A stretch of DNA of 32,000 nucleotides from Candidatus Helarchaeota ASGARD archaeon Hel_GB_B (GTDB lineage Archaea > Asgardarchaeota > Lokiarchaeia > Helarchaeales > HEL-GB-B): positions 1-32,000 of the forward strand of contig SUPR01000032.1 in assembly GCA_005191425.1 (NCBI GenBank), given 5' to 3'. The translations under genes and the position numbers were made by a program. Under the pieces are notes generated by a model. That model worked only from the letters and a program-made list of their open reading frames with translations, was not told the DNA's origin and made no database searches. Below are positions 18,535-23,139 of this stretch, piece by piece. The first letter of the stretch is position 1, and every line of letters begins with the position of its first letter.

Positions 18535-19350
18535 TTATATAAAATTTTTTAATGATAGCTTATTTTTTATGAACCTAATTAAAATATCTTTGGACACTAT
18601 TCCCAATAATCTTTCAGATTTATCAGTGATGACTAAGATTCTTGTCCCTTTATTAAGCATTTGATCGGCAGCTTCACCAATAGAAGTATCTTTAGCGATA
18701 AAAAATGGTGCTTTACAATATTTTTCAATAATAATCTGTCTTAATCGTTCCTCTTGGTGAACTCCTGGCACTTTTTCACGAAAATCCGAAAATGCTCTTG
18801 CTAAAACTCCTTCAGTAGCAACTCCCTTAACCGAACTTCTACTACCAACGAGAACATAGCAGACATCTTTTTCAAAAAGAATTCTACGTGCATGTATTAA
18901 CCTGCTATCTTCTGAAATAATTATGGGATTTTTCTCCATAATTTTATCAACAGTAATCGTCTTAATTCTTTGGCAGACTTTTAACATTTCATTTTGAGAA
19001 ACAAAACCTACTAATTTGTCATCAACGATTGGGATTCCTGTATACCCCTTGTCATACATAATTTCCGCAACTTTATATACCGAATCATCGGGTTTAGCGA
19101 CAACTGGGTCATAGACCATTATATTTGAAATTCTTATTGAACTTGTTTTTAATTTACCAGACTTGATAGACCCCAATCTGTCTAGCAAATCCCTCTCAGT
19201 AATTATACCCTTAAGTTCTTTTTTATTATCTATACACAATAAAATTGATGTTTTATTTTTATCCATTAAGCTCAAGGCATCAATTACTAACCTATCCTTA
19301 TCAATTGAAAATTTTTTAAAATTAATATTCATAATTTCTTCTATATTCAT
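18535..19350 (-). CDS. CBS-domain protein with four CBS motifs
   Basis: GIITERDLL, GIPIVDDKLVGFVS, GVATEG, LGIVSKDIL. Confidence 0.9.
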   Translation of the reverse strand: MNIEEIMNINFKKFSIDKDRLVIDALSLMDKNKTSILLCIDNKKELKGIITERDLLDRLGSIKSGKLKTSSIRISNIMVYDPVVAKPDDSVYKVAEIMYDKGYTGIPIVDDKLVGFVSQNEMLKVCQRIKTITVDKIMEKNPIIISEDSRLIHARRILFEKDVCYVLVGSRSSVKGVATEGVLARAFSDFREKVPGVHQEERLRQIIIEKYCKAPFFIAKDTSIGEAADQMLNKGTRILVITDKSERLLGIVSKDILIRFIKNKLSLKNFI

Positions 19351-19395
19351 AAAAATTCATTCCTTTCATAATTTAAATTTTAAAATTAGATTTAT

Positions 19396-19962
19396 TTAAA
19401 GGCAATCATCACATACAAATAGTCCATCTTCTGATTGCTTTAAATCATCACTCCATGCTCCACAAATTTGGCAATATCCAGTATAATTATCTACTTGATG
19501 TTCGATACTCTCTTCTACAATCTCCATCTGTTGTTTAAGAACTTCTATATAATCTGGAGAATGTTTTAAGACATCGGTCGATGAAATAATTCCATATAAC
19601 TTGTTTTCATACATTACAATTAATCGTTTTACATTATTATTCACCATTTTTCTCATAGCTTCAATTAAATTGTTTTCTCCATCAATAGTAATTAATGGTT
19701 GGGACATTATTTCAGAACATTTTATTGAGCTCGCTTTTTTATTAAATTGTACAACTTTTCGGATTATATCGTCATTAGTAATTATTCCTATAGGTAAATT
19801 CTCTTTATTTACTACTAAGACTGCTCCTATCTTATATTTACTCATTATATTTGCAGCACTTTGAATAGTTTCATTGTATCTAACTGATTTAATGTCTTTA
19901 GAGCATATATCTTTAACTTGCAAATCTTCTATTTTATTTATATTCATTTCAACATTCTCCAT
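19396..19962 (-). CDS. Archaeal CBS-pair protein with a C-terminal Zn ribbon
   Basis: PIGIITNDDII, LYGIISSTDVL, C-terminal GYCQICG...FVCDDCL. Confidence 0.9.
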   Translation of the reverse strand: MENVEMNINKIEDLQVKDICSKDIKSVRYNETIQSAANIMSKYKIGAVLVVNKENLPIGIITNDDIIRKVVQFNKKASSIKCSEIMSQPLITIDGENNLIEAMRKMVNNNVKRLIVMYENKLYGIISSTDVLKHSPDYIEVLKQQMEIVEESIEHQVDNYTGYCQICGAWSDDLKQSEDGLFVCDDCL

Positions 19963-20121
19963 TTAATTTGATCTTTAATGATAGGTCTTTTAATTTACAA
20001 TTTAAATAATCTTACATATCTTGGAGAATTTAAGAGTAAATTAAAATGTTTTGATCAAATTATTGTAAATAATATTGTTGTCTTTTAAATCTATAAAAAA
20101 ATAATTGAAATTTAAAATTTA

Positions 20122-20979
20122 TTATTTTTGTTCGAAGCTATCAAAACCACCAAACCCACCACCCATTCCACCGAACTTAATACCTAATACTTTTTGGACA
20201 ATAAAGCTAAAACCAAAACTACTCGTTAAATAAAATCCAAAAAAGTACAACGCAAATCCTCTGGGTGAAACTGGGATTCCTTGAATAAACATACCTACAA
20301 TAGGGGCTTCCCACACATTAAAAGGAAAGAATCCTACTAATACCCCTGAAAAAAACCAATTAAGTATGAAAAACATAACCATAAAAGGGACCATTGTAAT
20401 TAATGTTGGTTTAAGGCGTTGCCACATCATTTTTCTTTGTATTTTTTCTATGTATTTTTGTTTTCTCTTAACCTTAATCATCAATTTTCTATTTTTTGTT
20501 TCTTTTGCCTCTTTTTCCATTTTTTTATGTTTGTCAATTTCCTTTTGATATCTTTTTAATCGGGGGATGTCCATCATAATTCTGGCAAGTCCACTAGTAC
20601 CAAAAACAATTCCAAAAGATAATAATAATATACACAAAGTATTAATAGGATTCACATTATATTCAATCCAAATTTCTGGCCATAATAACCAATGTAAAAG
20701 GGTATATGTAATTGTCCATAGTGATACCCATCCTAATACATAAGTCCCTAGTCCTTCCATGAAGACTTTTCCTTTACTCCCTAATTTTTCGTCTAACTTG
20801 AATATGTAAACCATTATTGCCCAATCAACAACTACCATCAACCAGCCAAACCCAACTCCCCATAACTGGGCATTTGGCAGACCATATAAAGCGTCTAATA
20901 TTGTAAGAATATGACATACTAAAACTGTCCTAACTGCAAGGAGAAATTTTGTATAATATACTTTATCTTTAATTTCCAT
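20122..20979 (-). CDS. Oxa1-superfamily insertase: N-terminal EMC6/RAB5IF(OPTI)-like 3-TM module fused to a DUF106 (EMC3/TMCO1/Get1-like) domain
   Basis: Residues ~110-270 are typical DUF106 (TM1, basic coiled coil, KP-TM2, PF, TM3-QKVLG). Residues 1-100 read KDKVYY...YIFKLDEKLGSKGKVFMEGLGTYVLGWVSLWTITYTLLH, resembling the EMC6/RAB5IF family. Confidence is higher for the DUF106 part than for the N-terminal assignment. Confidence 0.8.
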   Translation of the reverse strand: MEIKDKVYYTKFLLAVRTVLVCHILTILDALYGLPNAQLWGVGFGWLMVVVDWAIMVYIFKLDEKLGSKGKVFMEGLGTYVLGWVSLWTITYTLLHWLLWPEIWIEYNVNPINTLCILLLSFGIVFGTSGLARIMMDIPRLKRYQKEIDKHKKMEKEAKETKNRKLMIKVKRKQKYIEKIQRKMMWQRLKPTLITMVPFMVMFFILNWFFSGVLVGFFPFNVWEAPIVGMFIQGIPVSPRGFALYFFGFYLTSSFGFSFIVQKVLGIKFGGMGGGFGGFDSFEQK

Positions 20980-21090
20980 TTAACGATTCTTCCTAAATTA
21001 TTATAAAAGCAATCATAAAATATATCTTTAAAATTTTAGTAAGTATAATTTATTAAAAGTTTTGATACTAAAATTAAACGATTAAATTCT

Positions 21091-23139
21091 TTGGATGGTA
21101 TCTTTTTGAAGGAAACTATTTCATCTTTTGATCTTGCAGCTATTATATCTGAAATTCAAGAAGAATGTATTGGCGCTATCATTAATAATGTATATCAAAT
21201 AGATAATATATTTATTCTTAAACTAAAAACAAGGTCAAGGACCATAAATCTATTAATTGAGCCTGCTAAACGAATACACACGACTGAATATCAACGAATT
21301 AAACCAAAATTTCCACCAAAATTTTGTATGACTTTAAGAAAATATTTGCGTAGAAAAGTGATTATTAAATTTAAACAATATAAATTTGATAGAGTCTTGA
21401 TAATTGAAGTTGCAAGAAGACATAAAAACCATGAAACAAGGGAAATTGAATATTCTGAAAAAAATTTTCTAATATGTGAATTCTTTAATAGGGGTATGTT
21501 ATTTTTATTAAATGAAATGGAAAATGTAATAATTGCAAATAAATATACTGTATTAAAAGACCGCCGAATAATTCCTAATCGTAAATTTGAATTTGCTCCC
21601 GTTCGAGGTTTAAATCTTTATGAATTTAAATATGAAGAGTTGCTGGAATTAAGCAATAAATCAAACAAATCTGTCGTAAATTTTCTAGCATCTGAGGTTG
21701 GTATTGGAGGGAAATATGCTACAGAATGTTGTCTAAGGCTGGATATAAATAAGAAGGAAACGATAAATAAGTTAGATAGCCAAAAAATTAAAGAAATATA
21801 TTTATTATTAAAAAGCTTTATTGATAAAATAGTTAATAATAAAATTAATCCTAGAATTATTTATGAAAATAACTCTGCAATTGGTTTTGAACCATTTGAA
21901 TTAATGGTAGATAAACAATTCAAAGCCAAAATTAAAGATAATTATAACTCTTTATTAGATGATTTTTTCAGTAAAAACGAACACCTTGAAACGGTCGAAA
22001 CTGAAATTGATAAAACCAGTTCTAAAATATCTAAACAAGAAAAAATTATTCAGTTTCAAAAAGAAACAATAAAGAAACTCGAAAAAAAAGTGATAGATTA
22101 TAAGGAATTTGGAGACCTAACATATCAATATCTGAATGTGATCCAAGATGTCCTCAATTCTTTTAAGGCTGCTCGAGATAAGGGTTATTCTTGGTCTGAA
22201 ATTAAGGAACAAATTAAAAATGCAAAAAAACAAAAAAATTTTCCTTTAATAAATTATATTGCAGATATTAAACCATCAGAAAGTATAGTTGTATTTAAAT
22301 TCGGAGAAAAATTAATACCTATAAATTTTAGAGAGACTCCTCAAAAAAATGCTAATGAATTTTATACTACTTCAAAAAAGTCCCAAAAAAAAATCGAAGG
22401 TGCTAAAAAAGCACTTGAATTATCTCTCAAAAATTTAGAAAAATCTAAAATAGAAAAAGAAGTTGTATCAACTTCCTTTAAACAAATAATTAAAAAACGA
22501 AAATTAAAATGGTATGAAAAATATCATTGGTTTAACTCGAGTGATAATTTTTTAGTAATTGGTGGTCGCGACTTAAAAACTAATGAAATTTTGTTTAGAA
22601 AATATCTGGATAAAGACGATTTATTTTTACATGCTGATATAAGAGGCTCACCAGCTGTAATAATAAAAAATAAAAGGGGTAAAATCCCTGAAAATACAAT
22701 TATTGAAGCTGCTCAATTTACTGTTATCTATTCAAGTGCATGGAAATCAAAATATATGAGTGCTGATGCTTATTGGGTAAATAAAAATCAAGTAAGTCAA
22801 GCTCCCCCTACTGGTCAATATTTACCAAAAGGGTCTTTTATGATCCGGGGTAAAAAAAATTACATTAAAAATTTATCTTTAAAATTAGCAATTGGGCTAC
22901 TAGAAGAAAACTCAGAATTTATTCCAATCGCAGGTCCAATTAATGCGGTCAAAAAACAAACTACTATATATCTAAAAATTAAACCTGGTAATAAAAAAAG
23001 GTCTGAAATAGCCAAAGAAATTAAAAAATTTTTTATAGAAAATGTTAAAGATGCGATAAAAAAAGATAAAATTAGGCAAATTTCATTGGACGAAATTATC
23101 CGAATTTTACCTGGAGAAGCCGAAATAATCGGACAATAA
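21091..23139 (+). CDS. rqcH: Archaeal Rqc2/RqcH (NEMF homolog) ribosome quality-control factor
   Basis: NFACT-N SSFDL, FCMTLRKYL, FDRV; coiled coil; WYEKYHWF; NFACT-R GGRD..TNE, HADIRGSP, GQYLPKGSFMIRGKKNY. Alternative start TTG 21106. Confidence 0.95.
   Translation: MDGIFLKETISSFDLAAIISEIQEECIGAIINNVYQIDNIFILKLKTRSRTINLLIEPAKRIHTTEYQRIKPKFPPKFCMTLRKYLRRKVIIKFKQYKFDRVLIIEVARRHKNHETREIEYSEKNFLICEFFNRGMLFLLNEMENVIIANKYTVLKDRRIIPNRKFEFAPVRGLNLYEFKYEELLELSNKSNKSVVNFLASEVGIGGKYATECCLRLDINKKETINKLDSQKIKEIYLLLKSFIDKIVNNKINPRIIYENNSAIGFEPFELMVDKQFKAKIKDNYNSLLDDFFSKNEHLETVETEIDKTSSKISKQEKIIQFQKETIKKLEKKVIDYKEFGDLTYQYLNVIQDVLNSFKAARDKGYSWSEIKEQIKNAKKQKNFPLINYIADIKPSESIVVFKFGEKLIPINFRETPQKNANEFYTTSKKSQKKIEGAKKALELSLKNLEKSKIEKEVVSTSFKQIIKKRKLKWYEKYHWFNSSDNFLVIGGRDLKTNEILFRKYLDKDDLFLHADIRGSPAVIIKNKRGKIPENTIIEAAQFTVIYSSAWKSKYMSADAYWVNKNQVSQAPPTGQYLPKGSFMIRGKKNYIKNLSLKLAIGLLEENSEFIPIAGPINAVKKQTTIYLKIKPGNKKRSEIAKEIKKFFIENVKDAIKKDKIRQISLDEIIRILPGEAEIIGQ

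Follow-up and report, generated by a model that had tools for sequence, protein, structure and literature searches.

All three insertases of the Oxa1 superfamily in the endoplasmic reticulum (ER) have a small three-helix partner, forming the pairs EMC3-EMC6, TMCO1-OPTI and GET1-GET2. Here we describe a gene in which an EMC6/OPTI-like partner and an EMC3/TMCO1-like (DUF106) insertase domain are encoded by one 285-codon frame. It is located at 20122-20979 on the minus strand of a 32,000-nucleotide stretch of the Candidatus Helarchaeota archaeon Hel_GB_B (contig SUPR01000032.1, positions 1 to 32,000; this whole stretch is called the window below). The best overall explanation, which we consider likely, is a natural single-chain insertase composed of an EMC6-like domain followed by a Ylp1 domain.

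For archaea, heterodimers of Elp1 and Ylp1 have been predicted from co-evolution and Asgard Elp1 has been linked to both EMC6 and C20orf24/OPTI, at a time when biochemical data on an archaeal YidC had not been published (Lewis and Hegde, 2021). Ylp1 (e.g., MJ0480 of M. jannaschii) and Elp1 (e.g., MJ0606 and Lokiarch_50810) are the same two components that are found in the fused gene. The fold of its C-terminal domain matches MJ0480, and its N-terminal domain belongs to the same small three-helix archaeal family, and to the same rqcH-adjacent locus, as the Elp1 of the Loki type. The difference lies in their arrangement. Here they form one polypeptide, whereas in the nine proteomes analysed by Lewis and Hegde, and in the Asgard genomes sampled outside the two fusion-bearing families, Ylp1 and Elp1 are encoded separately and far apart. 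In the GEL complex (TMCO1 with OPTI, also named RAB5IF or C20orf24; PDB 7TUT) the counterparts are two chains, found in the ribosome-bound multipass translocon with PAT and BOS, absent in prokaryotes (PMC9630114), and their sequence identity to the fused protein is about 20%. That TMCO1 and OPTI are its best matches may reflect a slower divergence of these two proteins from the archaeal form.

Single chains of this design have also been built in the laboratory. The engineered Emc6-Emc3 fusion (mito-EMC) has the same domain order, inserts proteins and complements a yeast oxa1 deletion (PMC8887752); therefore, such a single chain can be active. Both mito-EMC and the Get2-Get1 fusion (PDB 8CR1, PMC10646013) place the partner at the N-terminus and the insertase at the C-terminus of a six-helix core, so that the natural subunit order mirrors the hand-built one. 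These constructs carry added linkers and targeting parts, whereas the natural protein has a native linker of 11 residues, kept by selection in two archaeal families. Bacterial YidC, mitochondrial Oxa1 and chloroplast Alb3 are likewise single-chain insertases of the Oxa1 superfamily; where archaea and eukaryotes have an EMC6-type partner lying over one face of the last core helix, these proteins have additional helices of their own (Lewis and Hegde, 2021). In YidC, however, the additional helices form a hairpin within the series of core helices and not an N-terminal EMC6-like domain, and the fused protein matches PF01956 instead of the YidC family. Our literature search found no report of a natural fusion between an EMC6-like protein and DUF106. 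The components and their predicted partnership were already known, and it is the natural covalent form that is unreported in the literature found. In public annotation the fused relatives are named 'EMC3/TMCO1 family' or 'DUF106' only, with PF01956 as the sole domain.

The fused reading frame and its two domains

The features of the gene, all on the minus strand, are the following:

20122-20979 (-): fused EMC6-like and DUF106 gene, 285 aa (ORF listing and translation; stop codon at 20122-20124)
20668-20979 (-): EMC6/OPTI-like (archaeal Elp1-like) domain, residues 1-104, three transmembrane (TM) helices (profiles, Foldseek, synteny)
20884-20955 (-): TM helix 1, about residues 9-32, after a conserved K-x-YY-x-K motif (helix 3-32 of the AlphaFold model)
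20803-20871 (-): TM helix 2, residues 37-59 (helix 37-59 of the AlphaFold model)
20683-20751 (-): TM helix 3, residues 77-99, with the EG-x-G-x-Y...W...W...YT motif common to OPTI and EMC6 (conservation, alignment to OPTI and EMC6)
20650-20682 (-): extracellular linker between the domains, residues 100-110 (no K or R, two acidic residues)
20176-20649 (-): DUF106/Ylp1 (EMC3/TMCO1-like, Oxa1-superfamily) domain, residues 111-268, with one TM helix, a cytosolic coiled coil and two TM helices
20404-20574 (-): basic cytosolic coiled-coil hairpin, residues 136-192, with 22 K+R among 57 residues (model helices 138-161 and 164-209; charge count)
20125-20175 (-): Gly-rich C-terminal tail, residues 269-285 (pLDDT below 50 at 272-285)

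The window, whose G+C content ranges from 25 to 34%, corresponds to contig C110 of a metagenome-assembled draft genome (G000; 3.54 Mb, 182 contigs, 93.7% complete). Adjacent Elp1 and Ylp1 genes could have been merged near codons 100-110 by a mistake in assembly or sequencing, as might happen in a draft of 182 contigs in which another small gene (L003) appears frameshifted. This explanation is extremely improbable. The frame starts with ATG and runs for 285 codons with zero internal stops, and Logan contigs from four different studies match 20050-21050 with 0-12 substitutions and zero insertions or deletions; one of them covers the entire interval and another covers 20472-21050, so that two contigs bridge the junction codons at 20650-20682. 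Among the sequencing runs listed as holding this stretch, none is an RNA run. A fused frame of 283-336 aa also recurs in independent metagenome-assembled genomes (MAGs) and metagenome contigs. It is conserved in five species-level genomes and many metagenome contigs at 43-98% identity, and the linker varies in length among these relatives yet stays in frame. Because the contigs of the four studies are free of indels and the fused frame recurs in other assemblies, the frame is genuine and no assembly artefact. The uninterrupted 285-aa ORF reported in the initial annotation is thereby upheld, including at codons 100-110, where a stop or frameshift had been named as the way in which it might fail. 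Database relatives are labelled Candidatus Helarchaeota or Promethearchaeota, and one of the related genomes is the published MAG Hel_GB_A. In one fused relative (P0018, 336 aa) an acidic stretch of about 50 residues is inserted into the coiled coil on the cytosolic side, and the branch of this protein in the tree is very long.

In the C-terminal domain, Pfam assigns residues 111-268 to PF01956 (EMC3_TMCO1, DUF106) with 77.4 bits against a cut-off of 27.1 (E-value = 1.5e-21), a match that spans profile positions 14-168 of 169 and is returned identically by a six-frame search of the genome. It agrees with the earlier placement of DUF106 at about residues 110-270. Structural comparisons were made with an AlphaFold2 model built from a 59-row alignment (whole chain: mean pLDDT 90.7, pTM 0.84), a run with 12 rows (pLDDT 61, C-terminal third below 50) having been discarded. 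In this model the DUF106 domain has helices at 111-135, 138-161 and 164-209 (the hairpin) and 246-265. Its predicted-structure matches include TMCO1 orthologues (TM 0.64-0.66 by target, rmsd 3.5-3.7 Å), M. jannaschii MJ0480 and GET1, and the AlphaFold DB cluster fold search adds many archaeal DUF106 clusters. Among 38 DUF106 sequences D137, R188, P191 and Y250 are invariant, R143 is found in 37, K190 in 36 and N221 in 34; a K or R occupies position 133 in 34. Residues 111-268 represent a typical archaeal YidC-like (Ylp1) protein. The Gly-rich tail that follows is specific to the family of the window and is missing from the fused proteins of the sister family.

The N-terminal domain required a more indirect route. 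Hydropathy gives hydrophobic segments at about 13-31, 42-60 and 81-99, in agreement with the model helices at 3-32, 37-59 and 77-99, and bears out the three hydrophobic segments that had been seen in residues 1-100; by hydropathy as well as in the model, another three helices follow in the C-terminal part. Pfam and NCBIfam scans of this domain returned nothing significant, the relevant Pfam families being EMC6/Rab5ip (PF07019) and EMC6_arch (PF19094). A profile made from the fused proteins only was then compared with 1.84 billion representative proteins, and it retrieved three fused and 18 free-standing proteins, the latter of 64-145 aa and matched end-to-end and colinearly (E-values from 1.7e-16 to 8e-4). 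Ten of the 18 were scanned with Pfam; four (P0023-P0026) lie above the EMC6 cut-off and one has an EMC6_arch match below the cut-off. Comparison of the fused and free alignments with hhalign gave a probability of 99.4%. The joint profile of fused and free sequences, searched against 177,635 distinct PDB sequences with E-values up to 10, had three matches only, namely OPTI (7tut_9, E-value = 1.4e-7) and two EMC6 chains (E-values 1.4e-3 and 1.9e-3), aligned over the full domain. In the HMMER alignment to OPTI (PDB 7TUT) an IYW motif before helix 1, a GG loop and the EG...W...YT residues of helix 3 are shared, so that the likeness to OPTI given in the initial annotation can be read from an alignment. 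Y8, Y9, K11 and C22 are invariant among the fused proteins, with Y8 and C22 nearly invariant once free-standing relatives are added, and G41 in TM helix 2 is nearly invariant in fused and free forms. In an alignment of 27 sequences, both fused and free, W88 never varies and G76 and W84 almost never do.

Fold comparison gave a moderate match to OPTI. Foldseek matched the domain to 7tut_9 over 96 columns (probability 0.69, TM 0.55 by target, 22% identity, E-value = 1.3); this is the sole small three-helix chain among the 50 rows listed, and it comes from the same PDB entry (7TUT) as the top TMCO1 match. An ESM Atlas feature search named the clusters EMC6_arch and EMC6, with top scores of 0.80 that are within the range of shuffled sequences and too low to count.

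The rqcH locus and the assignment of the N-terminal domain

Two further features of the window define the locus of the fused gene:

20980-21090 (no strand): divergent intergenic region of 111 nt between the fused gene and the NFACT/RqcH gene (ORF coordinates)
21091-23139 (+): NFACT/RqcH (Rqc2-like) gene, head-to-head neighbour of the fused gene (Pfam NFACT_N 2.1e-57, NFACT-R_1 3.3e-37)

Synteny was studied by comparing window positions 20980-23139 with loci L012, L013, L025, L026, L029 and L030. The NFACT/RqcH gene stands head-to-head with the fused gene in the window and in four related genomes (tblastn), and head-to-head with a free Elp1 gene in the two genomes of the split Helarchaeales family and in four more distant Lokiarchaeia genomes with the Loki-type Elp1. 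The pairing of rqcH with Elp1, fused or free, was thus present in all 11 genomes checked, from Helarchaeales and other Lokiarchaeia, with gaps of about 30-140 nt, and no rqcH neighbour was found at the DUF106 (Ylp1) loci tested. Because rqcH pairs with Elp1 genes and not with DUF106 loci, the fused gene sits at the Elp1 locus and it is the insertase coding region that was joined onto Elp1. Synteny therefore identifies the N-terminal domain as the positional orthologue of Asgard Elp1, independently of sequence scores. The conserved divergent pair suggests that the two genes are regulated together, or that membrane insertion is functionally linked to the rescue of stalled chains.

Several observations weigh against this assignment or against the reading of the whole chain as a partner and its insertase. 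The direct Pfam EMC6 score of the N-terminal domain is 13.2-13.8 bits against a cut-off of 23.3 (E-values 0.13-0.25), and the fused-only profile retrieved zero EMC6 or OPTI chains among the PDB sequences. Membership in the EMC6 family consequently has to be argued from synteny, from a fold match of moderate strength and by way of intermediate sequences. The fold matches are within the range that helical bundles can reach through arrangement alone. The whole-chain model aligns to the Get2-Get1 single chain (PDB 8CR1) across both domains, but with a large rmsd (10.5 Å). Finally, a small free three-helix protein (L003 in this genome, L063 in the related genome G006) might be a second, very divergent EMC6-like protein, given an hhalign value of 64% against Loki-type Elp1 (11% against the EMC6-like alignment).

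Alternatively, residues 1-100 could be an unrelated three-helix membrane anchor or leader on an N-terminally extended DUF106 insertase, with a likeness to EMC6 and OPTI that stems from transmembrane composition and chance motifs. Besides the direct Pfam score under the cut-off, the best PDB sequence of the fused-only profile is not EMC6 but synaptogyrin (E-value = 0.039, which we treated as chance), and other Asgard DUF106 proteins do bear unrelated N-terminal additions, either one helix in the split family or an outside domain of about 300 aa in another family. We regard an unrelated anchor as very unlikely all the same. The matches to free proteins are full-length and colinear, and four of the ten such proteins scanned pass the Pfam EMC6 cut-off themselves; the joint profile has OPTI and EMC6 as its only PDB matches, with OPTI again among the fold matches; the gene occupies the conserved Elp1-rqcH position; and the N-terminal domain is conserved as strongly as the catalytic one. 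As for the low direct score, many true archaeal members likewise fall below the Pfam EMC6 cut-off, which is eukaryote-centred, and the weak match places residues 40-92 on profile positions 26-81, which is the expected place. The profile match proposed in the initial annotation thus stands by way of intermediate sequences and does not stand as a direct Pfam assignment. On account of the intermediate sequences, the solved relatives, the fold and the synteny, we consider it very probable that the N-terminal domain is a member of the EMC6/OPTI (archaeal Elp1) family naturally fused to an insertase domain.

Distribution and history of the fusion

A survey of fused against split forms, which had been proposed as a check, separated the Helarchaeales into two groups. 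The fused frame is present in all five sampled genomes of two families, i.e., in both genomes of the family of the window and in all three of the second, as open frames of 285-311 aa. Each of these five genomes has exactly one PF01956 gene, and the fused domain is the only clear EMC6-like match in each. The third family (two genomes) has a free Elp1-like gene of 116-124 aa and a separate DUF106 gene of 236-251 aa on other contigs. Outside Helarchaeales, 27 of 34 Lokiarchaeia genomes had two or three matches to DUF106, each about 195-260 aa long and not fused. Those 27 genomes show one strong and one weak PF01956 match, and each Helarchaeales genome a single DUF106 gene. DUF106 was also scanned in 400 Asgard genomes; among the 150 of 539 matches listed no other EMC6-like/DUF106 fusion was seen, and apart from the fused clade long DUF106 frames occurred in one family only, as three frames of 482-495 aa.

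Those three long frames are located in G096 (L060:2095-3558 (-)), G092 (contig C161) and G093 (contig C202). The G096 protein (487 aa) has a signal-anchor-like N-terminus and a predicted unrelated outside domain of about 300 aa before the insertase helices, and is a different kind of insertase fusion.

A related-locus search with the alignment of fused proteins gave the four known relatives and no others, and fold searches of the Atlas and of the AlphaFold DB clusters gave no clear full-length fused relative. One DUF106 entry of 281 aa aligns end-to-end with the model, but with an rmsd of 20.8 Å and 14% identity. Four AlphaFold DB clusters, A0A7C4J9R9 (281 aa), A0A7K3YQ27 (300 aa), A0A2R6LBW4 (306 aa) and A0A6S7M7K6 (293 aa), have a DUF106 fold with 110-150 extra N-terminal residues and might be further fusions or belong to the same family.

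In a maximum-likelihood tree of archaeal insertase domains, Helarchaeales form one clade (support 100/100). Within it the fused proteins (93/86) and the split ones (98/88) each form a clade, and the Lokiarchaeia fall outside. Since the outgroups are split, a single fusion event in the ancestor of the two Helarchaeales families is the simplest history, and the fusion is derived, lineage-specific, late and local, not ancestral. It is found in the archaeal phylum closest to eukaryotes. Being late and local, it does not show the origin of the ER systems. Relevance to the origin of GEL, EMC and GET, which the initial annotation had suggested, was accordingly not borne out, and what the fusion informs is the partnership.

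The DUF106 proteins of the split family (L036:1345-2055 (+); P0015, P0016, P0038-P0043) have one extra N-terminal TM helix, preceded by K-x-K and followed by a W-P motif, so that insertase helix 1 has a preceding helix there, as in the fused form. The idea that this helix is a remnant of helix 3 of an EMC6-like domain, left by fission, was rejected on an hhalign value of 0.7% against fused-only sequences; MAFFT had aligned the two helices, and an earlier hhalign value of 94.7% was circular, as the alignment used for it contained the same proteins.

On account of the L003/L063 protein, the status of the fused EMC6-like domain as the only partner is not certain. The frame L003:1483-1716 (77 aa) has a Pfam EMC6 match below the cut-off (E-value = 0.0025), no Pfam match was obtained for the intact counterpart of 98 aa in G006, and a search of G000 with the Loki-type Elp1 profile did not retrieve L003. 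These loci (L003:1483-1822 (-) on contig C141 of G000; L063:1486-1782 (-) in G006) encode a small three-helix membrane protein upstream of a conserved protein of 421-451 aa. L063 is an intact ORF of 98 aa in G006, and in G000 helix 1 is out of frame with helices 2-3, an apparent frameshift.

Predicted topology, architecture and function

The distribution of charges gives a clear direction to the chain. Thirty K+R residues fall in the four cytoplasmic segments and one in the three outside loops, and within the N-terminal domain positive charges are confined to the N-terminus and the loop 60-76, with none in the loops 33-36 and 100-110. From this positive-inside bias we infer a topology with the N-terminus in, the linker 100-110 outside, the basic coiled coil in and the C-terminus in. 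The predicted topology would allow a protein of the EMC6 type (N-in, C-out) to be joined to one of the EMC3 type (N-out), which had been anticipated for a partner that ends outside.

The two halves appear to be held together by selection. Between the two fused families identity is 44-49% in the N-terminal domain and 46-51% in the insertase domain, and only 9-27% in the linker, which is 9 residues longer in the sister family (an insertion in the alignment); equal divergence of the two domains indicates similar constraint on both. A natural fusion with both halves under purifying selection is classic 'Rosetta stone' evidence for the joint action of Ylp1 and Elp1. The covalent fusion and the whole-chain pTM of the model argue for association of the domains. 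Modelling the two halves as separate chains gave a score of 0.09 (mark 0.32) with poorly folded chains and counts neither way.

The fused protein would then be a six-helix, single-chain membrane-protein insertase, a function that, by analogy with its relatives, we consider fairly likely. In the proposed arrangement Elp1 (with EMC6, OPTI/RAB5IF and GET2 as counterparts) would be joined by a short extracellular linker to the N-terminus of Ylp1/DUF106 (with EMC3, TMCO1 and GET1 as counterparts). The basic coiled coil would lie in the cytoplasm, where ribosomes or targeting factors would be met. The three DUF106 helices would make up a hydrophilic groove within the membrane, through which short translocated segments would pass as the helix of the substrate moves into the lipid. 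The three EMC6-like helices would pack against the insertase domain and buttress it, in the way known for EMC6, OPTI and GET2 as chains of their own; the interface would be expected on the last insertase helix, at its distal face. This packing is predicted, as are the insertase activity and the essentiality of the gene. The fusion most simply arose once, in the common ancestor of the two Helarchaeales families, with the Ylp1 coding region joined downstream of Elp1 at the Elp1-rqcH locus.

Fusion need not have preserved this activity. The protein might be a real but specialised fusion that, e.g., scrambles lipids, leaks ions as a channel (a role at one time suggested for TMCO1) or assists the assembly of particular clients as a chaperone, and in which the tethered domain would act as a regulator or plug. 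Lipid scrambling by Oxa1-superfamily insertases is also described (PMC11047089), Swiss-Prot still labels TMCO1 a calcium channel, and the presence of one DUF106 gene here against two in most Lokiarchaeia sampled means that the system has been remodelled. We nonetheless find an altered function unlikely. The fused gene is the sole Oxa1-superfamily gene of these genomes and so holds the general function unless this was lost altogether; the positions conserved DUF106-wide are retained, D137, R188, P191 and Y250 without exception; and insertase activity is known for the engineered Emc6-Emc3 fusion, whose domains stand in this order. Since no other DUF106 gene was found in the fused genomes, which appear to rely on this insertase gene alone, the single-chain protein is probably, on gene content, their general YidC-type insertase.

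A wider proposal, to which we give slightly better than even chances, is that in these Asgard lineages the partner is no accessory but an integral and obligatory third of the six-helix catalytic core, and that selection could therefore join it to the insertase without loss of function. If this is true, the fused protein would suffice by itself as a natural minimal insertase, and the pairing of insertase and partner seen in EMC, GEL and GET would already have been obligate in archaea before eukaryotes arose. In addition, the divergent pairing of this gene with rqcH across the class may reflect joint control of membrane insertion and of the rescue of stalled nascent chains. From a practical aspect, one small gene of 285 residues with a fixed 1:1 stoichiometry would be convenient for structural, proteoliposome and complementation work.

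Regarding the other neighbours of the fused gene, two CBS-domain genes (188 and 271 aa) follow it on the same strand in the window (18535-19962 (-)). The 188-aa gene is also found downstream of the fused gene in a genome of the same genus (G001), at 65% identity.

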